Source: Octopus vulgaris (taxonomy: Eukaryota). From it: 64,000 nt of DNA. The notes beneath the pieces were generated by a model. The model was not told the origin of the DNA and did not search any database. It saw only the letters and a list, made by a program, of their open reading frames with translations. This document shows, one piece after another, positions 29,488 to 60,508 of this stretch (position 1 is the first letter of the stretch; the number at the start of each line of letters is the position of its first letter). The position numbers and the translations under genes are program-made. The stretch is taken from assembly GCA_951406725.2 (NCBI GenBank), contig OX597824.1, positions 67,828,001 to 67,892,000 of the forward strand. The letters are read 5' to 3'.

Positions 29488-30632
29488 TATAAAATTTATG
29501 AATAAATGAAAGAATGGAGTTGAACGACAAATTAACAAATTTCCTTTATTTTCGACATATGTTTCGAAGGCTGCATATTCCTAATTGTGAAGGAATAAGG
29601 AGTACATTATGCCGCTTTCTCATCAGGAAAAACAAGGAATTTATGTCAACATCAAGATTCACAGAAACTTTTTGATGACTGCTCTCACGGAGCGCATAGC
29701 AATAATGAGTGTCTCTTTAATATTCCTTTATAAGGAGTGACGTGAAACTGGTTGAATGTAGAAAATTCTAGAAGGTTCTAAAGGTTCAAGAGTTCAAACG
29801 AAGTAGGGGGAGAGAGAGGCCTAAGAAAAGTAAGGTGATTTGGAACAGGTCGTATGTATGGTGGGTTTTGTTAAATTCTTTTGTGAATGAGTGTCTGTGT
29901 GAGTGAATGAATATAACTGTATTAATACCTATGTGTGTGTATGTGTGTGCGTGAATGTGTATGTGGCTGGGTAGATGTCAAAAAAACAGATAGTTGTGTT
30001 GTAGCAGATATGTGTCTGTGTGCTTGATTACTATAGATAGAGGGGAAGAGAGAGAAAAAGAAAGAGGAGGGCGAGGTATTGGGACAAAGGCAAAACAAAC
30101 CTCAATAGATTGGGTAGTATGTCTTTGAAAGCATAAAATTTTTTTTTAAACTGAAGGGGTGAAATATATAAATGGAAATATATTAATAAAAATTCAAGGG
30201 GGTTATCTATATTAGTCATTATTTATATGAGTGAAAGGTGTGTTTTCTCCAGTGCAAGCACCTGTAGGACCTCTCGACGATTGAGTTTATTAAAGGTATT
30301 TTGGCGAATAATATATGAAAAAATTCAGAATTACATACGCCACAAATTTGTGGCGTCTGTAATTCTGAATCTTTGACGTCACTCCTTATAAAGGAATATT
30401 AAAGAGACACTCATTATCGTTATGCGCTCCGTGAGAGCAGTCATCAAAAAGTTTTTGTGAATCTTGATGTTGACATAAATTCCTTGTTTTTCCTGATGAG
30501 AAAGCGGCATAATGTACTCCTTATTCCTTCACAATTAGGAATATGCAGCCTTCGAAACATATGTCGAAAATAAAGGAAATTTGTTAATTTGTCGTTCAAC
30601 TCCATTCTTTCATTTATTCATAAATTTTATAA
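29488..30632. mobile_element. Penelope-like remnant with ~255-bp inverted pseudo-LTRs
   Basis: 29488-29743 is the near-exact reverse complement of 30376-30632, and each arm carries a hammerhead. A partial third copy is at 28490-28580. Confidence 0.75.
30478..30582 (+). ncRNA. Type I hammerhead ribozyme, canonical core (mirror copy on minus strand ~29538-29642)
   Basis: Stem I AAATTCCTTGTTTTTC/GAAAATAAAGGAAATTT; CTGATGA 30493-30499; stem II GAAAGCGGCAT/ATGCAGCCTTC; GAAA 30554-30557; palindromic stem III CATATG; GUC triplet ending 30565. Confidence 0.8.
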
Positions 30633-31437: not shown

Positions 31438-31974
31438 TTTATATCTGTACGGAGAGAGATAAAGAGGGATAGAAAGAGGGATAAAAACAGGTACAGACAT
31501 ACAGGCAGACTACGACACATTGAAATAAGCTTAGCTATCACTGACAAACGTGTTTGATTTGGGAGCTTGCGTTATGATGTCGCTTAACGATTTTAACTCC
31601 GGATTAATGGCAACAGTCATAGCTACCATGTTGCTCCTTCCACACTTGGCTCACTGCAACATCGACTATGTAAAAGCTAGAATGAGAGAAGTTTGTATTA
31701 GAAGTCGACTGGCACTAATGTTTAAGTAATTGAACTTGGAGAGCATGAAACCATGTGCTTGGTGCATTATTATGCATGTATATGTGTGTAGTTGTTTATT
31801 TAACTTAGTGGGGAGAGAAAGATATAGAGTGTGAGAGTGAGCGTGTGTGTGTGTTATGTTTGTGTGTGCGTGTGTGTGCGTGTGTGTGTGTGTGTGTTAA
31901 GCAGACAATTAGAGAAACTGGAATTTATATATTATATAACCTTGGAATATAATTATTGAAGAAAGTAAAACAGT

Positions 31975-32113
31975 ATGAGATCTTCCCAAGTTGACGTTGA
32001 TCGAATCCTACGTGTTCTGGGACAAACAAGATTTTTCCACACCACTCAATGCGTTCTGATTTGTGCCTCTGTAATTTTAGCGTCGATAAATAGTTTTTTC
32101 TACGTATTCTTTG
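31975..32113 (+). CDS. SLC22-like module B exon 1
   Basis: ATG...TTTG|GTatgt. Translates MRSSQVDVDRILRVLGQTRFFHTTQCVLICASVILASINSFFYVFF. Same length (139 nt) and phase as 43096-43234. Confidence 0.8.
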
Positions 32114-32369
32114 GTATGTAACAATACATATATTTGCATGCATTTGTATAGCAGGGCCTTTTGAGGAAAACAAATTGTGTTGCAGTGAATTCATGTGTTT
32201 TGATTTTGAATTGTGTATGGGTATATGAAACGTGGCCACAGCATTGGGTGAACTTAAATAACTCGGATATGTTTCGACCAAAATTTGGTTCAAACCACGT
32301 TTAACTTGACAGCACTACATAATAGGATCTGTTAGGTCACTTTTAAGTCAATTATTGTAGCATCATTTC

Positions 32370-32600
32370 TCATTCCTGTTGTGAGTTGTTGTTGGCTGAG
32401 ATACACCCAGGCATAGGCAGCTTTTCTGGAATCCCTTGATGAAATTTGTCCATGTCTCTTTTGAAGGTGATGGGAGCCTTTTCTTCTATGATTTGTTTTG
32501 GGGTAATGTTAAAGAGAGAAGGGCCTTTTGAGAAAATGAAATTGTGTTGCAGTGAGCAAATGATGCAGGGCTCGGGGCGGCGCTGGAGAGAATAAAGTTT
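32370..32600 (-). mobile_element. CR1/L2-type LINE 3' fragment
   Basis: HNFIFSKGPSLFNITPKQI.......FKRDMDKF...IP resembles the CR1-group ORF2 C-terminus. Confidence 0.55.
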
Positions 32601-32669
32601 CGATGTTTTATGAATATATATTTCTACACACACACACGCACACACGCCTATATCTATCTACCTATCAAC

Positions 32670-32754
<85 letters not shown>

Positions 32755-32789
32755 AATATATATATATTTGTTTCTCAACTTTTTTTTGT

Positions 32790-32835
32790 GTATCTTTCTG
32801 TCGAAGAGCGTAGGCTCGAAACGTAAAAGACTTTT
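32790..32835 (+). ncRNA. Degenerate minimal hammerhead-like motif
   Basis: CTGTCGA-A-GAGC-gtag-GCTC-GAAA-CG-TA at 32798-32825. A6 is substituted; same layout as 20549. Confidence 0.4.
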
Positions 32836-32926
32836 TCTATTTCTATCCCTGAGCGCTATACTAATACATTTGTTTGTTTGTACTCCACCTGCCTTCGTCT
32901 TTTGTTTATTTTCGTAAACTTTCCCG

Positions 32927-32973
<47 letters not shown>

Positions 32974-33114
32974 CGATGAGGACCGAAATGTCAAACATCT
33001 AAGTCCGCTGGTACAGTCCAAATAAAGAATATATATAAAAATATATATATACTTAGTATTTGCAAAAACTGTAATTTTTTTCCTTTCTTTATACTTCGTT
33101 CTATATATGTGTGT

Positions 33115-33166
<52 letters not shown>

Positions 33167-33242
33167 GTGGGTGTGAATGTGACTAAATATATATATACCT
33201 ATATATACTTCATTGATTAAACCTCGCCAAGTTAAATATGTA

Positions 33243-33312
33243 AACCACCTGAAGAATGACTGTAACTCGAAAATTTTAAGAATTGAACAGCCATGAAACG
33301 ATCGTACTGTTA
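33243..33312 (+). ncRNA. Hammerhead-like motif, canonical core, degenerate stem I
   Basis: CTGAAGA 33249-33255; stem II ATGACTGT/ACAGCCAT; GAAA 33295-33298; palindromic CGATCG; TA. Confidence 0.5.
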
Positions 33313-33458
33313 TATTAATTATCTTTTTTAATAATTTTGATATATATTTAAATAATATAAATTAATTAATCTTATGTATTGGCTTAAGTTTTTCATTTAA
33401 GTTTTAAGTTTTCACTATTTGCCTAATAGTGGTTTTATCTCTAATGTAATATAATATA

Positions 33459-33492
<34 letters not shown>

Positions 33493-33498
<6 letters not shown>

Positions 33499-33717
33499 AA
33501 TCCCTCGACTATGCTGGGTGTTACGTTCTAAAAACCCCGTGATAGGTGAAAATCTGCGAAGTAGAAGCAGTACTGTACTGTATATTTTTAAAAAACTATT
33601 TCTATAATTTGCATGTATTTTTAATTATAAATTCAAAACAACACCACAGCGAAATCGACGTAAGCTTAAATAATAAACCGCGATAGGTGAACCGCGATAT
33701 GGCGAGGGATTATTGTA
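33493..33717. mobile_element. pogo/Tigger-type MITE
   Basis: Termini ta-cataaatccctcgactat... and ...atatggcgagggattattg-ta are inverted; TA flanks. Confidence 0.6.
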
Positions 33718-33944
33718 TATGTAAGTATGTATATATATGTGTGTGTAAGTGTGTGTGCGTGTGTGTGTGTGTGTGTTTGTTTGTGTTTGTGTGTGTGTGC
33801 GTGTGTGAATAGATATTTATATGTATGTATACATATAAGCATGTATATACCTCTCTCTCCCTACAACACAAACAATGATAATAATTATAGTAGTATGGAA
33901 TTCCATAGGCTGTAGTTACGCATCATTATTATGCTACGAGTTAC

Positions 33945-34350
33945 TACTGGCGTGCTGGCAGAAACGTTAGTACTCCGGGCGAAATGCGTAGCCATATTTC
34001 GTCTGCCGTTACGTTCTGAGTTCAAATTCCGCCGAGGTCGACTTTGCCTTTCATCCTTTCGAGGTCGATTAAATAAGTATCATTTACGCACTGGGGTCGA
34101 TGTAATCGACTTAATCCCTTTGTCTGTCCTTGTTTGTCCACTCTATGTTTAGCCCCTTGTGGGCAGTAAAGAAATAGGCATTTCTCTTGTCGCTACGTTC
34201 TGAGTTGAAATTTCACAGAAGTCGACTTCGCCTTTCATCCTTTCAAGGTCGATAAATTAAGTACCAGTGAAACACTTGTATCGATGTAATCCACTAGTCT
34301 CCACCCCACCCCCACAAATTTGAGGCCTTGTGCCTCCAGTATAAGAACTA
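33945..34350 (+). mobile_element. Two tandem SINEs with Meta-domain-like core
   Basis: ttctgagttcaaattccgccgaggtcgactttgcctttcatcctttcg.ggtcgat occurs twice. Confidence 0.7.
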
Positions 34351-34528
34351 TATTTATCCTAAGCTGAAAGGAGTTCCACATTTGCATACCTATACCATTG
34401 GGTTATCCCAGAACATGGAATTAACATGTGGTAGACAAAAGGCATAGGAGCTTTCAAGAGCGCAATACGAGGCTTTTGCCCACTCTAAACTAAACGAATA
34501 TATATATATATTGTTATTGTTATTATTA

Positions 34529-34605
<77 letters not shown>

Positions 34606-34854
34606 GTTATTATTATTATTATTATTATTATTTCTAAGTCTATCTAGAGGGGACTACGGCAGCAGTACTGGGTATTAATAGTTATCACCATCAGTGCTGC
34701 TGCTCTAGTCTCCTTTAGAGAGATTTAGAAATAATAATATTTATATTTCGGAAAACCAGTGGATGTGTTCCATGTGTATATATAAACTTTTGTAAATTAA
34801 ACAGTTAGGTTCGACTACGCCACATTGATAAAGGGCAAATACTCTGAAACATTG

Positions 34855-35745
34855 TAAAATGCGAGCAAGGGGAATAATATTTTTAAGATTATATACCTGG
34901 AAAAGTACAGGATTATATACCTGGAAAAGTACAGGTCAAGTTTTTACACTTGGAAAAGTTCAGGACAAGTTATTACAACTGGTAAAGTACTGAACAAAAC
35001 ATTTTTTCCTTAAAATATTGCAGCTAAGGATAAAATTTCAAATTATTTTGATTTAGAAAATATTAGCTTTTGTTGAAACTAAAAAATGTATTACAAGTTA
35101 TTACTGCCATTTGTTATTACTTGTTACTTCTATTAAAAATTAATAATAACTCAAAACCTTTTTTTGCATTTACGAAAAAAATTCATTTGTTTAATTATTA
35201 ATTAATAAACATTTGAAAATAGGTTATAAAAATAATAGTACTACACAATTAGTACAATAAATAGGATAATAAAAAAAATCAGTTATATATTACAATACAA
35301 TCTACCCACACCAATAAATTAACAGTAAAATTGGCTTGAGTTATTGCCTAAGTTATTGCCAAGTCTTCACATTTTTTGTCTTGACCCAATGCCTATTTTT
35401 ACATAATGAATTTACCTACCATATATACTATTCTACTTTGCATAAAACTTTAACCATATTGGTACTTCTGGCTCTCGTTTTTAAAGTATTCTAGTGTGTC
35501 AATATTTTAACAAAATAAGAGTATCTTTTTTTATATTTTTTATGTTACTTAGTAAATTAAAATCAAATAATTTTTAATATTCAAATTTTATCCTTAGCTG
35601 CAATATTTCAAGTAAGAATTTTCTTGTTCTGTACTTTATCAGATGTAATAACTTCTGAACGTTTCCAAGTGTAATAACTTGTCCTGTACTTTTTCCGGTT
35701 TATAATCTTAAGAATATTATTTCTCTTCTTCGCATTTTTCCATGT
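34855..35745. mobile_element. MITE with ~190-bp TIRs containing subterminal repeats
   Basis: 34855-35045 is the reverse complement of 35580-35745; internal repeats of cctggaaaagtacagg. Confidence 0.7.
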
Positions 35746-36186
35746 AATGTTCTTTCCAGGCTATGCTATTATGCTAATTAAAAATTGATAATGTGTCAAT
35801 AATTTAAGATTTTACATTATTGAAAATTGAGTAATAAATTTAAAGTGTGTGTTGTATGTGTATGTCTGTGTGGGTGTGAGAGAGAGAGATGGTGGGTGTG
35901 TGTTGTTGCTGCTGTGTATGTGTGTGTGTGCGTGTGTTGTTGTTGTTGTCGTGTGTGTGTGTGCGTTTGTGTGATGGAAAAAGAGTGAGACAGCGTACAT
36001 TTTTTAATTTTTACTCACATCTTTTTTGAGTGATTGACTGAGAGGGAGCGGTGTGTGAGGTCAGAGGGTTAGAGAGAGAAAGTGGGTGTTGCTCTGTGTG
36101 TGACAGAGAGAGAGAGAGAGAGAGAGAGAGTGATAGCGGAAATTTTATTCATTTACTTTTTCTCACATCTTTTTCAGTATGTCATT

Positions 36187-36226
<40 letters not shown>

Positions 36227-37441
36227 GTGTCTTGCTGTGTGTGTGAGAGAGAAAGGGGGGAGAGAGTGATAGCTTAATTTTTTATTTAGTTTTGCTCGCA
36301 TCTTTTGTAGTGAGTGACTATGTGGTTGATTGACTGAGAGAGTGAGAGGGGGAGAGGCTGTTACACACGCGCACAAACACATACGTGCACCCATTATCTG
36401 TCGTATACACGTACCTGTACAATTACATATGCAAACATGTTTTTTATGTTTGCGTGTGAGGAAGAGAGCGAAAAGTCACTCACTGAGTAAAGGTGTGTGT
36501 TCTCATGATAATATTTTTGCATGTAAGTATAAGTAGCTAAGTAAAATTTTCGCTGTCATTCCCTCTCTCTCTCTCTCACTCACTTTCTCCCCCCCACACA
36601 CACACACATAGACAAACAACACAGACTTTATGTCTCTTATCCCCCATCAACATACATCTGTGTCCATTTGCTCTCATTCACTTTATGCCGACTTCAAACA
36701 AAATGTACATTTCTACACACAAAAATAAATAAATAAAATATTTTTACGGAATTTACCGAACGCCGTTAGGTAACAGCTAAGCTGCGCATACACGCCTTCG
36801 ATTTGAAACCAAAGATTGCCAAAATGTCTTGGTTATTACTAAAATTTTTCATTGTTAGGATATAATTGCATTAATATAGATGACGTAATTAAACTAATTT
36901 TTTCCTTACCACAATGATGCTGGTGACATATTAAATGTCCCCTTATAGAAATATATTACTACCCTCAAATTTGAGAAACAAACACATAATTTTTCTCTTT
37001 TGAAATTTCATTGCATGAAATTGATACCATGAAATTCCTCGAACTGAGCTCTATCAATTAAGCTTAATTAAAATATAGTTTGTCTTTAAAATGAAAAAAG
37101 TTAATTATAGTTAAATCTAATTTTTTGCCTTATATTCTTTTTTCATGATATTTTACTTCACAACTTTCTGGATACAAATTTTTGTTGCTTGGGATAAAAA
37201 CTATGAAATTCTTCTTGCATTTTTCTTTCGTTGAATATATATTTTGCTTTTAAAATTAAATATATATATATACTTATGCACAAAGATACAAACTCATATG
37301 TGCATAAACGTATATTTGTCTGTTTATATGTATAGATGTGCATTGTTTAGCACTTCCGCTATTCCTAAAAAATTTAGAAGTAAAATTGAAACTGATCATA
37401 TGATACTATACGTAGCTCACTTACTCCACCTTGTTCCACAG

Positions 37442-37650
37442 CCATCACCCCTGAATACCAATGTAATAATCTGACAGAGTTTCAACTCAATCAATACAAC
37501 ATATCGATTGATGAAGCCGATCTGATATATGATAAATGCTCTATAGACATCATCATTACCGATGGAGGGTTTACTACCGAGAATCGAACTCTGGACTGTG
37601 TGAATGGTTATTACTATACCACACCAGTTGATAAGTCTATAGTGTCACAG
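37442..37650 (+). CDS. SLC22-like module B exon 2 (extracellular loop)
   Basis: ccacAG|CCATC...TCACAG|GTaggt. Translates AITPEYQCNNLTEFQLNQYNISIDEADLIYDKCSIDIIITDGGFTTENRTLDCVNGYYYTTPVDKSIVSQ (loop cysteines, N-glycosylation sequons, SIVS motif). Confidence 0.82.
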
Positions 37651-41422: not shown

Positions 41423-42405
41423 CAGGTGTTGGACAAAATAATGGAAACACCTAACATCGTAGCATCATAATTTTGTAGTATCGATAAAACTGTCAAAATC
41501 TTGTATATTTTTATGCTTTTTGATTTATTATAAATTTTGCGTAATATGTTTTGCGAAAATTGCTGTATCCTTTTAGATATCATCAGAAAAAGTTAATTAA
41601 AATTCATTAAAATGACAGATCAATCGGACTTTCAAATAGGTCAAATTGTTGATGCTCGTATGGCAGGCGCTAGAGTAACGAAAACATCTGAAATATTTGG
41701 TGTATCAAGAAGTACTGTCTCGAAAGTAATGGCAGTCTTTGAGAAAGAGGAAAAAAGCTCCTCGTCGAAACAAAACTCTGGAAGAAAACTTTTAGATAGG
41801 AACCATCGGACACTTACGCGAAATTTTTAAAAATTACAGCTCCCAAAATTACTACAGAGCTTAATGATCACCTCGAGAACTCAGATTCCACAAAAACTGT
41901 TCGCCGGGAGCTGCACAAAGCCGTATTTCATGGGATGGCTGCAATCAGAGAACCACCACTTTCAATAACAATCGATGCAAAGCGTTTAGAGTGGTCCCTA
42001 GAGCAGTAGAAGAATGTTATTTTCTTGGACGAGTCATCCTTTACCTTATTTCCGAACAGCGGCTGAGTATACGTGTGGAAACAGCCAAAAGAAACATTTG
42101 ACCCAGACTGCCTTCTTCCAACTTTTAAACATGGAAGAGGATGTGTGAAGATCTTGAGGGGGGCTATATCTTGAAAATCCGCCGGTCAATGGTTTACCTT
42201 CATGGCAGAATTAATAGTCTATTTAAGCAATTTACCTCATCAAGTTCATCCTACTGTAGCGGAACTCTCTCCAGCGGAAAACGCAATCTTTCAGGAAGAT
42301 AATGCACCAATTTACACGTCTAGAGTTGTTACTGAATGGCACAAAAAACATTCTAGTGAAGTTGAACATCTTATCTGGCCACCATAGTCCACAAATCTCA
42401 ATATT
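41423..42405 (+). mobile_element. Tc1-family transposon, 3'-truncated, degenerate
   Basis: TA + TIR caggtgttggacaaaataatggaaacacc; MTDQSDFQIGQIVDARMAGA...GVSRSTVSKV; DES; FQEDNAPIY; WPP. Confidence 0.85.
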
Positions 42406-43095
42406 CGACTAGGGTTCGGGATACCTTCAGTTTAGATGATTTCAATGGGATCTTTACGAAGTGGAAGGAGTGCTACAAGTGCATGATGTCAGAGGACTTT
42501 ACTTTGAAGGAAATTAGAGTTTTGCATTTCTTTGAAATTTATGCTACGACTGCACATTGGAAATCCCTATCAAAGTCATTTTATCTAATTAATACTGATA
42601 TTCACACACACGAACAGGAGATTACTTATACTGATATTGGTTGCTTTTATTCATAGAGAAACATAAAGTTACATGATGTTTACATATTTGTGTGTACTTC
42701 CTCCCGGGAACTAGACACAAATACATACATACATATATACAGATAGACAGACAGACACATATACATACATGTAGGTGTGTGAATGTGTATATGTATGCAT
42801 TTGCGTATATTCAGCTTGAAGGAGAGAAATTTGCATAGGCCCTCTGCTAATATTAATTTTTATGTGCAGGCATTAGTGGAACATCATACGATACAGATTA
42901 TTTGTTTACGTATGCATGTATAATTATACATTTATCATTGAGGGCAAACAGAGAGACAAAGATAGAGAGGTTCGAACAGTAAGAGAGGGAGAGTGACAGA
43001 TAGAGAGTAAGAGAGCATGAGAGAGAGTTGCAGATAATTAGATAAAGTGGAGTATAGAAAAACCTTCGAATGTATTGACAGAAGACAAAAACAAT

Positions 43096-43234
43096 ATGAA
43101 GTCTTCCCAAGTTGATGTTGATGGAATCCTACGTGCTTTGGGACAAAACAAATTCTTCCACATCACTCAGTTTATTCTGATTTGTGCCTCTACAATTGTA
43201 GTAACGAGTAACAGTTTTTTCTACATATTTTTCG
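43096..43234 (+). CDS. SLC22-like gene C exon 1
   Basis: ATG...TTCG|GTatgt. Translates MKSSQVDVDGILRALGQNKFFHITQFILICASTIVVTSNSFFYIFF (D.IL..LG...FF TM1 pattern). Confidence 0.88.
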
Positions 43235-43374
43235 GTATGTATAAAATCTGCATATAACAATGAATATAGATGTGTGCATTTGTGTGTGTGTGTATACACA
43301 CATACACACATATATAGAAGTATATATAAGCATATATGTCCCTCTCTCTCCCTCTCTCGATTTGTATAGACAGG

Positions 43375-43424
<50 letters not shown>

Positions 43425-44624
43425 GTCTTTAACTTTACAAATAAATGCATGAAATGTTTATACAATGCAAGCAAAGATTACCGGCGTTGCCCGGTTACAT
43501 TTAATTGAAGAATTAGACTTTTCTGTTATATTTTCTGTAATGAACTGGAATATCTATGCTTCGAATTTCATCAAAATTGCAGATGAGAGTTATTTCCCTC
43601 TTTACACACCCTAAAAAATTGTAATCGTGCCACATATATCCCATACTACTGATTTTATGCGCATATTCCAAAATTCCAGTCTTATTGAACCTGTTGAAAA
43701 GATTTTGCTCCTGAAAAATGAAAGTCATGGAGCTCCAAAATGTGAGAGTTAAGGCTCCTGTTGGGGGTAGGCATCCTAATGTCAACCAGAGAAGTTGAAT
43801 TGTTGAGAATCTGTTGAACTTGGGTCTTATATCTATTGCTTGAATTTCTTTGAAATAGGAAATATATGTTCACTGGGTTTGTAAAAGAGAGCTAAGCTAC
43901 AGGAAACCAAACGACGAATGATCACAATAAGCAGTCAGCTACCCTACCCAGTTACTCATCTTGGAAGGCCTTGAAATCAATGTTACCATCTGGGGACTAT
44001 GTGTGACCTAGTGATAATAAAAAGACTGAAAGGAGGTCTGCAATCAAATAACTTTACTCAACACTTTGCAACTGAATCAGTGGAGGCAAAGATGCCTCCC
44101 ATTTACTTGACAATTTATGCACCACATTGAAGAAATCACAATGTAAGTGTATGTCAAAGCACACTCTTACACTATTGTACCATTGAAATACAAATAATGC
44201 TCATCTTTTATATTCGGGTAACCCTACAGATTCCAAGAGCACAACTGTATTCGTTTTTGCTTAGATAAGATGACAAAATTGAGGGTGTTAAGTCCCCATG
44301 AAAGGGTCTTCTAACTTGTAAGAAGATGAAATTTTATAAATATTACTTCATTTTTGCCTAATATCTACGTTTAAAATTTCCTCAACAGCAAAAATATATG
44401 AATTGCCATGGGGGGGGGGGGGTTATGGCCCTTATGCATAGAATATAATTTCCAAACTTCATAAAGATTCATTCAGTACTTTTGACCTAGTTTGGGATCA
44501 TAAAAGAAATGACTAAAATTTGGGAGTTAAGGCTCCCATTAGGGTGTTATATATAAATGCACTAAGCCACTATGTGTCAAATGGATGTACTATTAAATTA
44601 GTATAAAAATGTCTCACCCTTATT

Positions 44625-44692
<68 letters not shown>

Positions 44693-44721
44693 AAAAAGAA
44701 GTTTGTAAACGCCACTATATT

Positions 44722-44786
44722 AGATAAATTTTAATTTTACATGTTTCGGTCCTTGAAAAAACGAACCTTATCAAAAAAATTTATTA
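44722..44786 (-). ncRNA. Type I hammerhead in pLTR, U3:A8 variant (second copy ~49310-49372)
   Basis: Minus strand TTGATAA (44768-44774), stem II GGTTC/GGACC, GAAA, palindromic CATG, TA; AT-rich stem I. Confidence 0.65.
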
Positions 44787-45711
44787 TAAAAAGTATAATG
44801 GAACAGTTCATAATCGTTACATACATTCAATAGAATCCATGTTCTTGAAAAGACGAACCTTATCAAATATATTATAAAGAGTATAATAGAAAAATCCATA
44901 GTCGTTCCTTACTGTTTTGTCGAGTGTAGTGGAGAAGTTCATTATAGATTTCTTGCTGGTATCAAAAGGAACCGCTTTTATGTTACCTTGTGTTCCAATG
45001 GAAGCAACAGTAGTGATTCTTGGTCGTCGTCTGTTGGTCGTAATTTTGGTAACCTTGGTGGTGGTTGGGGTTATATCAGCTAAGCTGTGGCTGTGACAGC
45101 AGCAGTAGCCGTAGTAAAGGGCTGTTGATCGTAGTAGCAACAGTGGTCGGTTCTCTGGCACTGTTCAGTGACGTCACATAATTCCAAACCAATCAAAACC
45201 AAACTTCAACGAATATAAGGAAAAGACCCATAACTGTATCCTGTAAGGAAACCAACGAAGCAAGCAGGACGACAAGCTTGACCACGGAAGAAAAACGTCA
45301 TCAATTTTTTAACGAATCAAAATCAGATCTGACCCATAACTGTATCTTGTAAGGAAACCAACCAAGCAGAACAAGCTTGACCACGGAGGCAAAACGTCAT
45401 CAATTTTTTAACGAATCAAAATCAGATCTGCTCGCAGAGAAAAAATCTTTTTATAAATTCATCTTTCCCTAAGACCAGCAGGAGTGACTGCAGGAGTGAC
45501 TGTTTAAGGATCTGAGAAATTGTAATTCCCCCACCTCCACTATTTTAATTCTCTCACTGTGGCCGTAGCAGCAGTAGTAGCAGTAGGGGGCTGTTGATCG
45601 TAGCAGCAATAGTAGTGATCACGGTGGTTGTAGTAGTAGTGCTAGTGGGAGCAGTCGTAGTGGTTGTGGTAGAATTTCATTTTTCTTTTTCGGAAGACCA
45701 ATGTTTTGTTT

Positions 45712-48006
45712 TAATATTCCTGGCCCAGGGTGTTTAAACTTGGTCTAAATTTTTTGATGAAATAAAGTTCTTAATTTTGGCATTGAGTGAAGGTTACGCT
45801 GTCACTGAATTTGTAAAGTGGGTAAGTTGTAAATTTCGGATTTTCATTTGCAGTACATCTATCTATGTGTCCGCTGACCGGTATTTTCCGGTATTCAGGG
45901 TTTCTAATTTGTGATTTATGCACCGCCATCCTTTTACGTAAGCTATTTTTTGTATGGCCTATATACTGCCTATTGCAGCCTGCGCATGTTAAGACGTAAA
46001 TTAAGTTTTCTGATGCACAGGTGAAGTTTGTTCTAATGGTGAACTGATGGCCTTGTTCTAGTATAAATTCTGAACCTTCTACCAAGATGACACAGATTCC
46101 GCAGTTGGGCCTTCCACATTTTCTAACTGCTGGTTTTGTGGTTGATGTTGAGTGCAGTTTAGCTTGGGTTAAAATCCTTTTCAAGGATTTTGGTTGCCAT
46201 TTACTTTTAATGATGGTGTGTGTTTCGAGGATCCGGTTCATCTGTGGGTCTCTCTTTAGTAGGGCTGTGCTTTGTAGTATGGTGCTGAAGGCCTCATTGT
46301 TAAGTGGGTTGTGTGTAGAGATGTAGGGAAGGGTTTTTAATTGTTCTTTCTTTTTTGGTTTTGTTTGTCTCAGGTCTTCTATACTTAATTTAAGTGCCCG
46401 TTGGATTGCACTGTCTATTAGGGGATGTGGATAGTTTCTATTTATGAGTGTGGTTCCAAGTTCCTGGAGACGTGTGTCGTGTGTTTGTGTCTGATATTAT
46501 GGTGCAAATCCTTCTAGCTAAACAAAAAGGGACATTTATTCTAGTGTGTTGTGAGTGGCATGAATCAAAGCGTAGGTACTGTTTGGAGTCTGTCGGTTTA
46601 TAATAGATATCTGTCTCTATTTTGTTGCCGGTTTTCTTAATGAGGATGTCTAAAAATGGTAATTCTTCTTCGTTATGATCCATCGTGAATTGTATATTAT
46701 CATTTATTCCATTTAATAGTATTTTAAATTCCTCAAGTTTCTCTATACTTTTATCCCAGAGGATAAAACAGTTGTCGAGGTATCTTTTCCAGTTGTTCTG
46801 GATATAGGTGGAGAAGGTGTTTCCATATTTCTCGAGTGTTATCTGGTAGGGTATTTTCTCGAGGTATCCCATCACTAGGTTGGCAAAAGAAGGCGCAGTA
46901 CGCGTGCCCATCGCTGTTCCCCGTCTTTGTCTGTAGAAATTATTGTCAAAAATAAAGTAATTGTTTTCTAAAATAAATCTAAGTCCTTCTATTATAAGAT
47001 CTTTGTTTATGCGAGTTGGGAGTTCAAAGGAGTAGTTATTCAGCCAGAAGGTGATCGCTTCTATTCCTAGGGTGTGAGGGATGTTAGAATAAAGGTTAAC
47101 TACGTCGAAGGATACTAGAAGGGTTTTCTCATTGACTGTTTTAGGGAGGTGGTTGAGCATGTCTATATCGTCTCTTACGTAGCTTTTGATGTGTTTTAGG
47201 AAAGGTTTAAGAAGTGTGTCTAAGAAATTGCTGAGGCGGTGAGTTTCACATGCTGGCCCTGCTATTATCGGTCTAAGTTTAAGATCATTTGGTGAAGGGA
47301 TTTTGATGAGTATATCGGTAGATGTTTTGCATGTTTCACTAATTATTTGGCTTTTGTGTACTTTAGGGATACCGTAGAACAAACTCGATTTGCACTTGAA
47401 GTTAGTGATGTATTCATACTCCTTGTCCGTGAGTCCTTCTCGGTATGTGTTGATTAATGTCCTGAGGTTATACATTATTTTTTGCTGATTATACTGTTGG
47501 GCCCTTTCATAATACGTTTCATCTCCTAATAGGGATAGCACTAAATTTTTATAATCGTTTGTATTCATTAATACTACCGCGTTGCCCTTATCTGCCTCCT
47601 TAATTGTTATTGTTTTATCTTCTCTTAGTTTGATGTGGTCGTTCCATTCTCTTTTGTTAAAGTTTGGGCTGTGTTTTTGTTTCTTGGTGAATTGAAAAGG
47701 GAAATTAGTTATGTAGTCACAATAGCGGTCTAAGGCTTTATTCTTTCCCTTGGTAGGGGTGTAATTGCTGTTGTTTCTAGCTATTGATTCATCATCTATT
47801 TGTTTGCCATGAAATTCTTCGGTAAGTCTTAGTTTCCTACAAAATTCCGAAATATCATCTTTCATTTCATAGTAATTAAAACGTTGTGGGTTTGGTGTAA
47901 ATTTAAGTCCTTTGGAGAGTATGCTTATTTCGTTAGGTGTAAGTTCTTTGTTTGAGAGATTGATTATTTTAATTACCTGAGGTTTCTTTTGTTTGTCTTT
48001 TGCCAT
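45712..48006 (-). pseudogene. PLE RT + GIY-YIG endonuclease ORF (ORF2), disrupted
   Basis: ORF 46438-48006 joins 45771-46241 via a frameshift near 46475 (continues RLQELGTTLINRNYP...). Premature TAA at 45771 precedes ELYFIKKFRPSLN. YxDD reads YLDN. Confidence 0.88.
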
Positions 48007-49207
48007 CGTGTGTCCCTGTTCCTGTGCGATAGGTCTAAAAAATGGTTGGTGTAGTTATGTTTAAAAATACTGTTTATCTGTCTCCTGTTGTTATAATTGT
48101 CAGAGTGAGTTTGTGGTGCTCTGTTTTGAAGTGTGCTTTTGTACCTAGTGTTCCGTCTTAGTTTATCAGGTATATTGTGTTGGTAGTTGTTTCTTCCATA
48201 GTGCATTTGTTGTTTGTTAGGTTTGTATGGTTGGTTCCTAGGGTGGATGTTTGGTGGTGGAGTTTTAGTTTGGTTATGTGGATTGTATTTCATAGAATTG
48301 TATGTTGTGGGCCCCTGTAAGTGTTTTGGGGTTGGTGTAGGTAGTGTGGGGTGTGTTTTAAATGTAGTTTTCTGGTGTAGAGTGTGTTTGGATTTCTTGG
48401 TGGTTGTTCCGTTATGTTGGTATTTGGTTTTGTTTTACTTAATTTTATGAAGGGGTTGTTGGATATGTGTTCATTTTTGAAGTTGGTTTCATAATCCAAG
48501 AACCAGATGGCGCTCTTTTCCCATCGTTGGAGGGACTTAAGTTCCTCTTTTTCACATTCTTCTTTCCATAGTGCTAGTAATGTTTCAGTATTGATGTCGT
48601 CTATTAGTTTGATGACTCCTTCGTTGATTTCCTCATCTATGGTTTTTACTTTTTCTTCATTCGTCTTAGCTCTCAGCTTAAGTAGTTCTATTTTCATCTT
48701 CATTTTCTCTAATGACATTTTTTCTCTAAGTCTTCTTTGTTCTTCTGGTTCTTCCAAGATGGGTTTTATTTGTAATTTGCGGGGTATGATTAGGGGTGTT
48801 GAGTCAAGCCACTTTTGGTAAATCTCTGCTTTATTCTGATTTTGTATCATTTTCCAAAAAGCGAATTTTCTGTTTCGCTGTAGTATTCTCCATTGGGGAA
48901 GGACTTGGTTCTTTATTTGTAATATTGAAGTTATTCGGTTCTTCCCATGTGGTCCTTCTTTTTGTTGCTCTTGTTTCGTAAAGTTTGTGAAGAATGTGTT
49001 CATTATATCGCATAGATTTTCAAGGTTCTCGTATGTTTCAGAGGGTGTTTTATTCGTTTCGGTTTCATCGTTAGTTTGTGTAGAAGGTCGAGATGTTGAG
49101 TTGAGTTTGTTTAAAACTGCTGTTAGGTTTGAATTTATGCTTTTCAATTCTTTCAGTATCTCTTCATTTATTGAGGAGATGTCGTTGGTGTCTGTTTTAG
49201 TAGGCAT
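47973..49207 (-). CDS. PLE upstream ORF1, coiled-coil-rich, probably one ORF broken near 48290
   Basis: 305-aa ORF with heptad-like segments (EEILKELKSINSNLTAVLNKL; EQRRLREKMSLEKMKMKIELLKLRAKTNEEKVKTIDEEI), followed by a 106-aa N/P/Q/R-rich ORF overlapping the ORF2 start. Confidence 0.6.
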
Positions 49208-49871
49208 TTTCAGGAGCTCGTACGTAATATGATATTTATAATAAGAGTAGATCGTATACGAGTGGGTATATATTTGTAAAAAAGAAGTTTGAAAACGCCC
49301 CTATATTAGATAAATTTTAATTTTACATGTTTCGGTTCTTGAAAAAACGAAACTTATCAAAAAAATTTATTATAAAAAGTATAATGGAACAGTTCATAAT
49401 CGTTTCATACAATCAATAGAATCCATGTTACATACATTCAATAGAATCCATGTTCCTGAAAAGACGAACCTTATCAAATATATTATAAAGAGTATAATAG
49501 AAAAATCCATAGTCGTTCCTTACTGTTTTGTCGAGTGTAGTGGAGAAGTTCATTATAGATTTCTTGCTGGTATCAAAAGGAACCGCTTTTATGTTACCTT
49601 GTGTTCCAATGGAAGCAACAGTAGTGATTCTTGGTCGTCGTCTGTTGGTCGTAATTTTGGTAACCTTGGTGGTGGTTGGGGTTATATCAGCTAAGCTGTG
49701 GCTGTGACAGCAGCAGTAGCCGTAGTAAAGGGCTGCTGCTCGTAGTAGCAACAGTGGTCGGTTCTCTGGCACTGTTCACTCACGTCACATAATTCCAAAC
49801 CAATCAAAACCAAACTTCAACGAATATAAGGAAAAGACCCATAACTGTATCCTGTAAGGAAACCAACCAAG

Positions 49872-49976
<105 letters not shown>

Positions 49977-50007
49977 TAATTAGATAGATAGATAGTTAGA
50001 TAGATAC

Positions 50008-50040
<33 letters not shown>

Positions 50041-50067
50041 CAGACAGATAAATAGATAGATACATAG

Positions 50068-50208
<141 letters not shown>

Positions 50209-50814
50209 TACACACAACATACAAAGATAAATTGAGAGATACAACTGAGTGGGCAAACAAAAATATGGGACACTGCGTAGTGCTTTTTTATGTTGATAAG
50301 CCTGTTACTTGTTCTATTAGTTTGTTCTTGTGAAACCAGTAGGTTATGGGGGTGTAGTAAATAAACCAACACCAGTTGTGAAGCAGTGATGAGGGAGAAA
50401 CACAAAGATACACACAGACTTACATATATACATGCATATACGTACAATTGATTTCTTTCAGTTTCTGTCTACAAAATCCACTGACAAGGCTTCGTTTGGT
50501 TTCAGGCTATAGCTTAAGACACATGCCAAGTTATCACACAGTGGGACTGAACTGAGGACCATGTGATTGGAACTAAGTTTGTTACCACACAGCCACAACT
50601 GCACCTATGTATGTGTGTGTGCGGGGGGAGGTGTATGTGTGTATGGGTGTATATATGTATGCATATATAGATATATATATATATGTACATATTACATGTA
50701 CATCTATATATATATACATCTAGACATATATGTATACACATACATGTATATCTATAGAAATACATCTATACATATACAACTATACATATACAGCTATATA
50801 TATGTACATGTATG

Positions 50815-50858
<44 letters not shown>

Positions 50859-50872
50859 CATATATATACATG

Positions 50873-50938
<66 letters not shown>

Positions 50939-51149
50939 TCCATATACATACAATAGAGAGATGTTTTTGTTTCACTTTTAACACGTAAGAATGAAATAGT
51001 GGAGAAGATATCATATTGCTGTGGGCTCGCCTAGGCAAGAAGTTAAATAAGTAAGGCATGTGTAAAATATGAATGAAATTGGTTGTGTAGTTCTCAAGGT
51101 TTAGGGATTCACACAGACAATAGACACACACATTCTCAGTTTTATATAT

Positions 51150-51535
51150 TTATATATAAAAGTAAGGTTGTGTGTCTGTCTACTCCGATTTAGATTCCTA
51201 ACTACTCCCACATTTTGCGGTGCAGTTTAACCAAAACCGGGTATCTTATAGTCGTGATTCATATCAAGCCCTTCTGGGTATTAGCGCGCGTCTACGATGA
51301 GTCTACGATTTTAAAAATAATTTACCATCCTTTTTTCCATTTTAATACATATTTTTTTAAAGGGAAGTAACTCTCTAAAAATGTCTACGATGAGTCAACG
51401 ATTTAAAAAAAAATTTACCATCATATTTTTTCCATTTTTAATGCATTTTTTTGCTATTTTTTGGCTATAACTCTCTAAAAATGCTTTATAGTTATTTCCC
51501 TTACAAACCCGAGCAACGCCGGGCGATACTGCTAG
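51150..51535 (+). mobile_element. Non-autonomous Helitron
   Basis: 3' hairpin cccgagcaacgccggg followed by CTAG (51532-51535) then T; same terminus as 23150-23177. Confidence 0.75.
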
Positions 51536-51544
51536 TATATAGAT

Positions 51545-52260
51545 AAAGGACAATAGAATTTAATATGTAGAAGTCCCAATGTTGCAATACCACTACATCC
51601 CATATACAAAATGACATCGATGGAATGGCAGCAATTTTAGGCTTCGCACTCCCGTGTTCTTTCCAAAACTTGCACCATAACACGCTTAAAAGTTTCAAAC
51701 CCCACTTCTCTGATTTCTCTGTTGATGTTCTCCGTCAGTTGCACCAGGCTCTCCGGTTTGTTGATGTAAACTCTCTCTTTAAGGTATCCCCACAAGAAAA
51801 ATTCGGGTTTGTCAAGTCTGGGGAACGTTAAGGCCAGTTGACATTGCCATAGCGTGAAATTATTCTCTCTCCAAAGCACTGCCGTAGCAACTGCATTGCT
51901 TCTCTTGCGGTATGAACAGTTATTCCACCTTGCTGGAACCATGTGTGAGGTCTACATTGAATGTCCCTCACGTTACCCAAACTTGACAAACCCAGGGTTT
52001 TTCATGGGGAGATACCTGAAAGAGGGGGTTTACGTCAAGAAACCGGAGACCCTGGGGCAACTGAAGGAGAACATCAACAGAGAAATAAGAGAAATGGGGC
52101 CTAAAACTCTTGAGGGTGTTATGGAGCAAGTTTTGGAAAGAGTACGGGCCTGCGAAGCCGAAAATGGTTGCCATTTAAGCGATGTCAATTTTCATATATG
52201 ATGTAGTGGTATGGCAAAATTTCACTTGTACGTATTAATTTCCATTGTCCTTTATATTGT
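51545..52260. mobile_element. Inverted duplication of a Tc1/mariner transposase 3' end
   Basis: Minus ORF 51637-51942 (PRLDKPEFFLWGYLKERVYINKPESLVQL...) and plus ORF 51854-52201 (PNLTNPGFFMGRYLKEGVYVKKPETLGQLKENI...) are mirror homologues of the SPDLNPxDFFLWG region. Confidence 0.75.
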
Positions 52261-52507
52261 GTAAAAATTTCATGCATTTATTTGTAAAGTTCAGAAAGTT
52301 ATTAAAAAGTTGAAACCTATCAGTGACCCTGGAGATATGCTGTATGCACATAAGCAAATATACATATTTGAAAATACTAATGCACATACACGTATATATG
52401 TATGTATGTTCGCATGTATAATGATGCATTAGCTATTTCTAAACATTTTGAAGTAACATTGAATCTTTATCTCTTGTTGAAATTATGCAAACAAATAATG
52501 AGATACA

Positions 52508-53775
52508 CAGGGGTTGGACAAAATAATAGAAATATCTTAAAATTTGAAACAAATTTATTTTAATGTGGAGTAGGACCGCCTTTGGCAGTAATTACACCTT
52601 GAATTCTACGAGGTGTGAACTCATACAAAGTTTGAATTGTTTCCAAAGGAATTTTTGTCCATTCTTCAGTTAAAGCAGTATCCAGTTCTTGTAGTGATGA
52701 TGGTAGAGGATATCGACACTTAATTCTAAAATGCACCATAAATATTCAATAATATTGAACTATGTGGACTGTGGAGCCCAGATAAGATGTTCAACTTCAC
52801 TAGAATGTTCTTCGTGCCATTCAGTAACAAATTTAGCCTTGTGAATTGGTGCATTATCATCCTGAAAGATTGCGTTTCCCGCTGGAGACAGTTCCGCAAA
52901 CATAGGATGAATTTGATCACATAAAGTACTTAAATAGTCTTGACTATTAATTCTGCCATGAAGGTAAACCATTGGTCCGGCGCATTTCCAAGATATAGTC
53001 CCCCAGAGCATCACAGATCCTCCTCCATGCTTAATAGTTTTAAGAAGGCAGTCTGGGTCAAATGTTTCTTTTGGCTGTCTCCACACGTATACTCGGCCGC
53101 TGGTCAGAAATAAGGTAATGGATGGCTCGTCCTAGAAAATAACGTTCTTCTACTCCTCTAGAGATCAATTCTGTAGGTTTTTACTCCACTCTAAACGCTT
53201 TGCAACGTTTGTTATTGAAAGTGGTGCTTTTCTGATTGCAACCCTCACGTGAAATCCAGATTTGTGCCGCTCCTGGCGAACAGTTTTTGTGGAAACTGGG
53301 TTCACGAGGTTGTCATTAAGCTCTGCAGTAATTTTGGGAGCTGTACTTTTGCGATCCTTTCTAAAAAACATTCGCTTGTGTCCAATGGTCCCTATCTGAA
53401 AGTTTTGGTTTACTTCCAAATTTTTGTTTCGACGAGGAGGTTTATCCTTTATTTCAAAGTGTGTCATTACTTTTGAGACAGTACTTCTTGATCACCAAAC
53501 ATTTCGGCTGTTTCGTTACGCTAGCTTCTGCCATACGAACATCAATAATTTGACCTATTTGAAAGTCCGATAGATCTGTCATTTTAATGAATTTTAATTA
53601 CCTTTTTCTGATGATATCTGAAAAGAAACAGCAATCTTAGCAAAACATATTAAGTAACGATAATAATAAATAAAAGAAATAATATATACAATAAACAAGC
53701 TTTTGACGGTTTTATAGATATTTCAAAATTATGATGATTTGATGCTAGGTGTTTCCATTATTTTGTCCAACCGTG
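52508..53775 (-). mobile_element. Full-length degenerate Tc1-family transposon
   Basis: TIRs caggggttggacaaaataat / attattttgtccaaccgtg-TA; KHGGGSVMLWG, FQDDNAPIH, WAPQS motifs (ORF 52760-53086). Confidence 0.9.
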
Positions 53776-53838
53776 TATGATACGTAAACTGTCCTAATTA
53801 TAATAAAAGTAGCTCACTTTCTCCTCCATGTTTCACAG

Positions 53839-54047
53839 CCATCACTCCAGAATACAGATGTAATAATCTAACCGAGTTTCAACTCAATCAATACAACATA
53901 TCGATTGATGAAGCCGATCTGATATATGATAAATGCTCTATAGACATCATCATTACCGATGGAGGGCTTACTACCGAGAACAGAACTCTGGACTGTGTGA
54001 ATGGTTATTACTATACCACACCAGTTGATAAGTCTATAGTGTCACAG
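53839..54047 (+). CDS. SLC22-like gene C exon 2
   Basis: tttcacAG|CCATC...TCACAG|GTaggt. 209 nt, same translation as 37442-37650 except Q->R and F->L. Confidence 0.88.
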
Positions 54048-54899
54048 GTAGGTTGAGTTCCATTACTGTATTAAACTGTTGTTAAGAATTAATATGTGTT
54101 CATGTCAGGTTTATGTCATCTCTGCATTGTTTGTAGAAATCTTCTGAACACCGTAACTTTCTAAATTGTAACTCTTAGAATGGACACAAGTATCATAACA
54201 TTTAGTACTTTTGCCTCGTATGTAAATAAATTATGAAGGCAATCATTAATTATTAAATGAGCAAATGAATATATTCATGCAGAAGTATATAACATTTCTA
54301 ATTTAAAGATTTCATACATTTATTTTTCTTAGTGTAATATAATACCATATTTCTTTTCATTGATTCTCCTAGCATTTGGACTGTTTTATTTACAGTAATT
54401 TTCAACTCTGTTATACGTTGAAAAATAATAGTTGACAACATAACAAACACATTGTTGTCAGAAGACGGAACACTATGATCTGCGAGGTGAGAGCTGGACT
54501 ATTGACATTGCCATCAGTTGAAACCTTAGAACTAGAGTAAATGTCAAGGCTGAAAATTGGCTTCAAATTTTGACACAAGGCCAGCAATTTTGGAATCGGG
54601 GTAGGCCGATAACATCGACCTCTGTGTACAACTGGTACTTATTTTATTGACTCTGAAACGATAACAGGCAGAGTCGACGGCGGCGAATTTGAACTGAGAA
54701 CGTAAAGACGGAAAAAAGCCGCTAAGAATTTTGTCCCTCGTGGGAACAATTCTGCCAGCTCACCGACTTAAATTGCCTGAAAATTTACCGCTTCTATTCC
54801 ACTTCTTTTAAGGTATACACAAACGGAAGATAGGAATTTTTTGCGAGGTAACGAAATATGGTGTTTTTTTTTTATTCACGGAAAATATGTATATAAACA

Positions 54900-55200
54900 A
54901 GGTGGTATAAAAAAATTTCGCGGACTAGTCATGTTTAATAAAAAGTAACTTATTTACCTAAGTTTTAACATCATCTCCTTCGAAATAGTCATCTTGCGCA
55001 GCAATAAACAGGTCCCAGCTTTCCTACCACTTTTGGAATCCGGCCTGCGGTTCCTTCTTGATGTCGGCAACGGCGTTAAAACAGTAACCTTTGAGCTACA
55101 TTTTCCTCTTAGGGAAGAGATGGAAATCCGCAGGAGCTAAATTTGGTGAATAGCGCGGGTAGGGAAGTGATAGCATGTTGTTTTTGGCAAGAAACGCACG
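54900..55200 (-). mobile_element. mariner-like 3' remnant
   Basis: Minus strand reads ...DLAPADFHLFPK...LKGYCF... and ...AQDDYFEGD, typical of a mariner C-terminus. Confidence 0.6.
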
Positions 55201-55417
55201 ACTGTATTATAAACTGTTAAAGAAGTGTGTTAACAACATGAATGCGAACATTTGTTGTTCTTTCCCAGCATTACATAACGTATCAGACTTACCTGGAGAA
55301 ATTGTCTCCCTTAGAAATTTTCTATGATGTCATGAAAAGAACAAACAGGCAAAATTTAAACTCTACACCTTAATCAAGTAATTTATCATTGTCTATAAAT
55401 TATGTTTATTTTTACAG

Positions 55418-55648
55418 TGGGACCTGGTCTGCAACAATTTAGGATTGGCTGAATCAACGCAAACGGTTTATGCTTTGGGTCAAGTGGTCAGTGGTCTGTT
55501 AGCACCATATTTAGTAGAAAAATACGGACGAAAACCTACGAGAGTGACAAGTAATATTTTGCTGGTAGTCTTGAACTTAATCGCAGCATATTCTCAGTTT
55601 TATTGGTGGTTTACAACAATCAGATTTTTCGCTGGAATAGTTCGTGAG
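55418..55648 (+). CDS. SLC22-like gene C exon 3 (gene continues beyond window)
   Basis: tttacAG|TGGGAC...CGTGAG|GTaata. Translates WDLVCNNLGLAESTQTVYALGQVVSGLLAPYLVEKYGRKP...IRFFAGIVRE (WDLVC signature, MFS motif A). Phase 0 out matches the exon 4 type at 3368. Confidence 0.92.
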
Positions 55649-57944: not shown

Positions 57945-57994
<50 letters not shown>

Positions 57995-58001
<7 letters not shown>

Positions 58002-58364
58002 TCGCCATACTAATATGGCATTCTTATAAAAATAAGAAAAAAGCTGTCCGCTTATTAGCTCCATGAGGCCATCGCCTTAAGTTAGCTATTTGATACACAA
58101 ACTGTATCCATATAACCTTCGAACAAGGGAGGTCAGTCGCTCCACACTACTTGACCAGCAGCTACAGACGCGTTTCGGGGTATTGCCCCTTTTCAATGCA
58201 GCCGGTCAAGTAATGTGGAGCGACTGACCTCCCTTGTTCGAAGGTTATATGGATACAGTTTGTGTATCAAATAGCTAACTTAAGGCGATGGCCTCATGGA
58301 GCTAATAAGCGGACAGCTTTTTTCTTATTTTTATAAGAATGCCATATAATATGGCGATAACTAT
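57995..58364. repeat. Near-perfect hairpin (~165-bp arms) with a hammerhead at the apex
   Basis: 57995-58156 is the reverse complement of 58204-58364; flanked by (TA)n. Confidence 0.92.
58161..58202 (-). ncRNA. Type I hammerhead ribozyme, U3:A8 variant
   Basis: Minus strand GCTGCA-TTGAAAA-GGGG-caata-CCCC-GAAA-CGCG-TC-TGTAGC. Confidence 0.75.
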
Positions 58365-58424
58365 TATTTTCCGGGAACGCTGCCGCTGTTCTCTTTTAGA
58401 GAGACTTAGTTATTTTAATATTTC

Positions 58425-58497
<73 letters not shown>

Positions 58498-58533
58498 GTT
58501 GAGTTGGTGTGTGAAAGAACGTGGTAGAATATA

Positions 58534-59255
58534 TAGAAAATAGTAAAAAGTGAAAAAACTACAGAAGGCTTGTTTTAAAAGATTAAAAAATATATTTGAG
58601 TCATTATATCAGAAGAATGTTATAAAATATTTTCATATAGTGACATAGATTTTGAAGAAATTACCGGTTTCGTGTTAACTTTTCAAATTTCTCAAAACAT
58701 CGTGTTATGACTTCGTTATGAAGTGTAAAGTAGAGTTCCAGGTAAGGGGAGGTAATAAGTGATTTCTTCCGGTGTAAGGGAGATAATCGCCTTATATTTC
58801 TTGCTTCTTTTACTTAATGGGGTGAGTTTCTCTGTATAAGAATGTTAGAGTGGTTAAGTTTGGGCTTATATTTTTCAATGTGCTATTGGAACACCAACAC
58901 AAATTAGACTAAACAAGGAAACATTCTTCATCAAACTTAACCACTCTAACATTCTTATACAGAGAAACTCACCCCATTAAGTAAAAGAGGCAAGAAATAT
59001 AAAGCGATTATCTCCCTTACACCGGAAGAAATCACTTATTACCTCCCTTTACCTGGAACTCTACTTTACACTTCATAACGAAGTCATAACACGATGTTTT
59101 GAGAAATTTGAAAAGTTAACACGAAACCGGTAATTTCTTCAAAAACTATGTCACTGTATGAAAATATTTTATAACATTCTTCTGACATAATGACTCAAAT
59201 ATATTTTTTTACCTTTTAAAACAAGCCTTCTGTAGTTTTTCACTTTTTACTATTT

Positions 59256-59258
<3 letters not shown>
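58534..59258. mobile_element. Penelope-derived foldback (~325-bp arms), hammerhead in each arm
   Basis: 58534-58862 is the reverse complement of 58932-59258. The spacer encodes PLE endonuclease C-terminal remnants (IRLNKETFFI on plus, IEKYKPKLN on minus). Hammerhead GAGAAAT-TTGAAAA-GTtaacAC-GAAA-CCGG-TA-ATTTCTT at 59101-59139. Confidence 0.85.
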
Positions 59259-59291
<33 letters not shown>

Positions 59292-60207: not shown

Positions 60208-60235
60208 AAGGGTGAAAAGGAACACACGAGTTGAT

Positions 60236-60498
60236 ATATATGAAAAAACAAATCAAAATAGAAAATGGTAAAATAATTTTATAAAGAACATTTCAGTACC
60301 GGTTTCGGTCATTTTGAGACCTTTTCAACTGTAACGATTAAATAATTAAATTTAGAAAAATTAGGAGAAAAGTTTTCTTCTAATTTTTCTAAATTTAATT
60401 ATTTAATCGTTACAGTTGAAAAGGTCTCAAAATGACCGAAACCGGTACTGAAATGTTCTTTATAAAATTATTTTAGCATTTTCTATTTTGACTTGTTT

Positions 60499-60508
<10 letters not shown>
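60236..60508. mobile_element. Spacer-less foldback (~135-bp arms), hammerhead in each arm
   Basis: Palindrome centred ~60371 between (TA)n tracts. CAG-TTGAAAA-GGTC-tcaaaat-GACC-GAAA-CCGG-TA-CTG at 60413-60450; mirror ~60293-60330. Confidence 0.88.

Follow-up and report, generated by a model that had tools for sequence, protein, structure and literature searches.

How does a long and almost perfect hairpin come to carry a single hammerhead motif in its loop? This is the question raised by positions 57995-58364 of the 64-kb stretch of Octopus vulgaris DNA that was analysed (the window). The initial annotation of this hairpin preferred a distinct non-autonomous element, rod-like and of the retrozyme or MITE type, whose cleavage releases a long dsRNA, and named, as a second possibility, a PLE inversion that had happened once and had broken at stem I. 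The evidence presented here supports this second possibility. The hairpin can with good confidence be read as two 5′-truncated copies of one high-copy hammerhead repeat, lying head to head in (TA)n and most likely inserted in a single PLE retrotransposition event: listed family contigs of three sequencing runs have one arm, the joins between inverted copies vary, and a tail is present on one side only. The parts of the locus are as follows.

57950-57994: (TA)n target tract on the left, part of a TA-rich run that starts further left
57995-58202, minus strand: copy 1, 5′-truncated, from helix I through ~172 nt downstream; its 3′ end abuts (TA)n
58161-58202, minus strand: type I hammerhead motif with a U3-A8 core, a helix I of 6 bp, a helix II of 4 bp and a palindromic helix III
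58201-58202: head-to-head junction, a 2-nt self-complementary GC overlap common to both copies
58201-58430, plus strand: copy 2, inverted, 5′-truncated and with a tail; it begins just past the cut site
58365-58430, plus strand: 66-nt tail, family sequence that extends the arm, at the right end only
58431-58493: right (TA)n target tract

Of the 165 positions in the alignment of the two arms (57998-58162 and 58198-58361), 160 match, and the arms pair perfectly and without interruption over 134 bp (58013-58146 with 58214-58347). The folding energy of the hairpin is −312 kcal/mol (z = −44), which was equalled in 0 of 100 shuffles. The mismatches between the arms include three separate sites, at each of which one arm alone departs from the letter of the repeat family described below. 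No ORF of note was found in the hairpin unit. Thus, the near-perfect duplex and the non-coding nature of the unit were both correctly annotated. The unit had also been placed between (TA)n tracts, which holds for the left end, but at the right end the arm is separated from (TA)n by the 66 nt of family sequence at 58365-58430. Because this stretch is a family tail and is present at the right end only, the real insertion extends from ~57995 to ~58430 and has asymmetric ends, rather than being a symmetric 370-bp unit. A target-site duplication is indistinguishable inside (TA)n, here as in the insertions described in PMC8557442.

The loop, read on the minus strand, contains the core UUGAAAA, in which U3-A8 replaces C3-G8, a helix II of GGGG/CCCC with the loop CAAUA, the GAAA and the GUC site in place, and a self-complementary helix III region, ACGCGU; the cut is predicted between 58167 and 58166. 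A strict motif scan gave one match in the 64-kb window and none in each of 60 block-wise dinucleotide shuffles, and a relaxed scan gave three against a shuffle mean of 0.07; the Rfam scan gave 0 hits at the gathering score. The U3-A8 pair is a described variant in PLE hammerheads (Cervera and de la Pena 2014, PMC4209133), and hammerheads with this pair have been reported to be active in vitro (PMC3088659). In the predicted monomer, helix II has a pairing probability of 0.97, helix Ia of ~0.35 and helix III of 0.0, and in ~4% of the ensemble helices I and II are formed while the core is open. Two copies are predicted to cofold into a double hammerhead with a 6-bp helix III (−31.9 versus 2 × −12.9 kcal/mol). 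Hammerheads with a short palindromic helix III are reported to work as dimers (PMC4209133), and a monomeric axolotl hammerhead, whose helix III has 1 bp and whose tetraloop is palindromic, was reported to cleave by 6% in an hour (PMC7229834).

In the family, a 3-nt UAC strand lies ahead of the helix I of the ribozyme (seen by eye in loose ends of contigs from the sequencing runs X11 and X14, introduced below). This native loop-1 strand is missing at the focal locus because the head-to-head join removed it. At low magnesium, hammerheads require the loops of helices I and II to be in contact (PMC6155905); judged from its sequence, the focal hammerhead does not have the contact between loop 1 and loop 2. 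The motif had been annotated as a complete hammerhead, which is true of the core but not of the strand upstream of helix I. The focal ribozyme is predicted to be weak here, since it has lost the loop-1 strand and would need to dimerize to form helix III.

The origin of the arms can be seen in public sequencing runs, of which 20 of the 24 listed, under six organism labels, contain at least half of the sampled words. The contigs of four runs were aligned to 57988-58436: X2 and X14 (organism A), X3 (organism B) and X11 (organism E). Contig data drop rare variants, and the X2 and X3 contigs fit either arm at the join. A 392-nt contig of X11 comprises, in this order, 24 loose letters, 58430-58350 reversed, 58010-58202 and 94 loose letters; over 58010-58202 it has 1 difference from the window, after which it continues for 94 nt in other sequence, the native upstream of the family. 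Among the contigs listed, the window is left at 58202 for non-arm sequence in X11 (1 of 1 contig), X3 (2 contigs) and X14 (1 contig). The arm is joined to the stretch 58365-58430 in contigs of X11 and X14, and loose ends past 58430 in X2, X3 and X11 show that the family continues for at least 24 nt. The layout of the family is therefore native upstream, hammerhead, one arm, the 58365-58430 stretch and at least 24 nt further.

The depth of these contigs leads in the same direction. In the bin 58198-58212 it is one third of that in the preceding bin, both in X11 (5.45 versus 16.4) and in X14 (40.2 versus 120.5), and it is zero over 58213-58347, so that no X11 or X14 contig crosses the focal join. 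In X2 and X3, depth is present across 58198-58227 and is assignable to either arm. No contig among those listed for the four runs spans the whole stretch. The summed contig depth in X2 is 1e5-1e6. In X1 and X2, 5 of 23 sampled words are missing, versus 4.5 expected if the junction and outer-variant words were the absent ones; this closeness was given no weight. Judging from these contigs, a high-copy hammerhead-bearing family is the parent of both arms. It had been named beforehand as telling against a rod-like element that all other genomic copies carry only one arm plus the ribozyme: this is the case for the listed contigs of X11, X3 and X14 which leave the window at 58202, but X2 and X3 are ambiguous at the junction, and this exact join may recur elsewhere.

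This parent may be either the terminal part of a longer PLE or a non-coding, structured unit ~400 nt in length. Upstream sequence of the hairpin family, of which 94 nt is the longest stretch, showed no connection with an RT ORF, and the arm gave no match to the PLE of the window. Exact-pattern scans of metagenome contigs with the ribozyme core and with the arm returned 0 matches. No published account of an octopus hammerhead family, of a single-hammerhead rod or of twin priming in Penelope elements was found, in a search that covered listings of mainly open-access papers. The native upstream sequence is not the same in runs from different organisms but nonetheless pairs, as judged by eye, with the arm start, and small hairpins are present in both the family upstream and the 3′ extension. 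A weak match at 41729-41759 was set aside, as it looks like an A-rich chance hit and is inside a Tc1/mariner-like remnant.

How, then, were the two copies joined? At 58157, almost the entire depth of all four runs has G as the family letter, and copy 2 can accordingly be placed as starting at +8 to +10 relative to the predicted cut. A start of copy 2 at the ribozyme cut itself, i.e., at +1, is ruled out. The right arm mirrors the family sequence to +8 and meets helix I at −35 via the 2-nt GC overlap. Copy 2 has no ribozyme because it is truncated just downstream of the cut site, and the locus has a single one since the break of one copy is on the outer side of helix I, whereas that of the other is 8 nt beyond the predicted cut. 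That helix I seems to run into the long duplex is explained by copy 2 being the reverse complement of the sequence after helix I.

These features can be accommodated in the following series of steps. A PLE protein with RT and GIY-YIG would nick both strands of the TA tract, and each nick would prime a cDNA on the family RNA, starting internally at ~+172 in one case and ~+237 in the other (nt past the cut site); with unequal internal starts, a tail would be left at one end only. One cDNA would halt at −35, where helix I has its outer edge, and the other at +8, whereupon the 3′ ends of the cDNAs would anneal via 2 nt and be filled in. As copy 1 alone would have reached the ribozyme, one hammerhead would result in the loop. 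In published PLE insertions, the partner copy is inverted and 5′-truncated, a tail is present at one end, and (TA)n is favoured as the target (PMC8557442; PMC3846280; PMC8969392). In vitro, a PLE protein has been reported to nick both strands of AT-rich DNA and to reverse transcribe from two internal starts, the spacing of which makes the tail, and the PLE hammerhead was dispensable for insertion (PMC11167929).

If joins of this kind are made by the meeting of two cDNAs, what do the joins of other copies look like? Of the 15 joints listed (out of 16), 13 run from left arm to right arm in X2, with 13 different breakpoint pairs; copy 1 ends at +2 to +151 and copy 2 at +37 to +209, with overlaps of 0-5 nt. 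The mean overlap at the 13 listed joins is 2.15 versus 0.71 by chance (P = 0.0002, 5000 draws), a value that the aligner may inflate. Each joint is from one contig, and 12 of the 13, with a short side of <30 letters at likeness 85, are less reliable; the focal join aligns without a break and hence could not figure among them. Hairpin copies that had lost their centre by deletion would also give such joints. As evidence of variable inverted joins they are good but not conclusive.

Two neighbouring foldbacks (~58500-59260 and ~60210-60505) have sequences unrelated to the focal hairpin but resemble it in layout: each arm has a hammerhead core with U3-A8 and a palindromic ACCGGT helix III, the 3′ ends face outward into (TA)n, and extra sequence is present at one end only. 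Thus, the presence of a ribozyme in each arm of other foldbacks, as annotated, was confirmed for these two, which have two ribozymes because both copies extended past theirs.

Three head-to-head hammerhead insertions are found within 2.6 kb, and every young core found in the window is U3-A8. An older foldback (17293-18490, ~80% arm identity) has hammerhead-like cores, one per arm and close to its outer end, and these cores point inward, opposite to those of the young foldbacks. A young inverted repeat at 29487-30632 (257/261 match) surrounds a 624-nt centre; no hammerhead core was found in it, and a third partial copy of the repeat is upstream, at 28490-28592. The window also contains a near-full PLE with RT and GIY-YIG (~44690-49875, minus strand), which has (TA)n at both ends, partial tandem repeats, a frameshift near 46470 and a separate 336-aa upstream ORF. 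Its RT shares 95% identity with a protein of Octopus sinensis, and its C-x4-C-x2-C linker is as in Neptune-type elements. No canonical hammerhead core was found by the scans in the repeats of this PLE.

The same family and architecture would be retained if the mirror arm had arisen by fold-back self-priming, with the first cDNA stopping at helix I and copying itself, which is possible but rather unlikely. The ribozyme stem would then be a favoured turning point, and many independent single-hammerhead hairpins should be present in the genome. The join is exactly at the outer edge of helix I, as such a turn would have it; the native upstream pairs with the arm start for ~12 more bp past a small internal loop (by eye), so that a fold-back site exists; and self-priming has been proposed for PLE inverted junctions (PMC3846280). 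However, fold-back alone cannot provide the 66-nt tail of copy 2, for which a second primed cDNA is needed, and the 2-nt overlap is no longer than at the 13 other joins and is outside the register of helix Ia.

Little can be said for a separate rod-like element, a non-autonomous retrozyme or MITE, in which the whole hairpin would spread and the ribozyme would process a long dsRNA. This reading, preferred in the initial annotation, is very improbable. The near-perfect arms and the intact core would suit it, read-through RNA would keep the 3′ end of the family and so would in principle be recopiable, and junction-crossing contigs would be compatible with the X2 and X3 depth. However, the listed family contigs have one arm plus native upstream, the ends are asymmetric and the other joins vary, instead of the symmetric fixed termini recurring as a unit that define a MITE or foldback DNA element. 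A single cut could not free the rod from flanking RNA, RT would need to traverse a 165-bp duplex, and the monomer, with helix III unpredicted and so small a part of the ensemble in an open-core form, would be poorly suited to the task, as the slow monomer cleavage of the axolotl hammerhead (PMC7229834) also suggests.

An assembly or read chimera can scarcely be upheld: palindromes are prone to foldback artefacts and none of the contigs listed for the four runs spans the whole stretch, but the three arm differences are each off the family letter on one arm only, the asymmetric ends include a genuine family tail, and the neighbouring foldbacks and the X2 joints show the same biology.

For the preferred reading, two truncated copies head to head, there remains the question of what the hairpin does as RNA. 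SLC22 exons are present on the plus strand at 43075, 53832 and 55415, and one exon of the window is 100% identical to Octopus vulgaris SLC22 models. The hairpin is probably within an SLC22 intron, which we infer with the following exon outside the window, and the ribozyme is probably antisense to the host transcript; the likeliest transcript is the plus-strand SLC22 intron. Cleavage would merely nick the loop, both halves staying paired. Release of dsRNA through ribozyme cleavage is unlikely, because the loop-1 strand has been removed, helix III is predicted in the dimer only and the motif is antisense to the probable host intron; the long-dsRNA release first proposed is thus unsupported. The long stem is predicted in either strand, and for that reason a dsRNA substrate in the host pre-mRNA is plausible even in the absence of ribozyme action. 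A-to-I editing was considered as the source of A>G and T>C differences in X14 and rejected, as the same contigs carry other changes too; X14 is merely presumed to be an RNA run and was given no weight with regard to expression. The SLC22 transporter genes of the window are in tandem on the plus strand (3365-24038, 31969-37650 and 43075-55620); the first two exons occur twice (31969/37441 and 43075/53832), followed by a single third exon.

The focal hairpin can be seen as a tidy instance of a known PLE insertion anatomy. Its by-products are a young, very abundant U3-A8 hammerhead family common to several related species, for which the literature search described above returned no paper, and a series of junctions usable for testing how PLE inversions form. 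Perhaps helix I steers the join of the inverted partner, single-hammerhead rods recur in octopus genomes, and at least one rod is now a PLE-copied sub-family that seeds 165-bp intronic dsRNA stems; this is quite improbable. If the stem-I hot spot or the spreading sub-family were real, ribozyme folding would be tied to the unexplained inversion step of PLEs, and cephalopods, which are known for heavy A-to-I editing, would seem to have long dsRNA supplied steadily to their introns.

Among known systems, animal non-LTR retrozymes (Cervera and de la Pena 2020, PMC7229834; Li et al. 2026, 10.64898/2026.07.22.740005) resemble the focal locus in being non-coding, a few hundred nt in length, PLE-related and equipped with a type I hammerhead, and the parent family could be a non-LTR retrozyme. 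As defined in these reports, such retrozymes are direct tandem repeats with a ribozyme per unit, yielding circles (10.64898/2026.07.22.740005; PMC7229834), whereas the focal locus is an inverted pair with one ribozyme, a second unit being absent from the window. The focal motif is also like the metazoan type I hammerheads of PLEs and satellites in PMC4209133, with a helix I of 6 bp, a helix II of 4 bp, a short palindromic helix III and U3-A8. Motif pairs 100-700 bp apart on opposite strands are reported there; the focal motif differs from the hammerheads of that report in being single and in having its loop-1 strand replaced by an inverted copy. The closest likeness is to the insertions of endonuclease-bearing PLEs (Arkhipova et al. 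2013, PMC3846280; Craig et al. 2021, PMC8557442; Frangieh et al. 2024, PMC11167929), which share with the focal locus the head-to-head 5′-truncated pair, the one-end tail, the (TA)n target, the hammerhead upstream of the 3′ ends and the short overlap at the join. Unlike the published insertions, as far as these papers describe them, both focal copies are stumps without an ORF, the tail is 66 nt rather than 30-40 nt (PMC8557442; PMC3846280; PMC11167929), and one copy alone reaches the ribozyme, its helix I continuing into the arms. The locus has the 5′ truncation (the family extends at least 94 nt further upstream, and copy 2 starts from +8), the inverted partner with a variable join (as in the short-sided X2 joints), the tail at one end and the (TA)n target. 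By these four tested features, it is a PLE-type head-to-head insertion with a putative RT-bearing parent.
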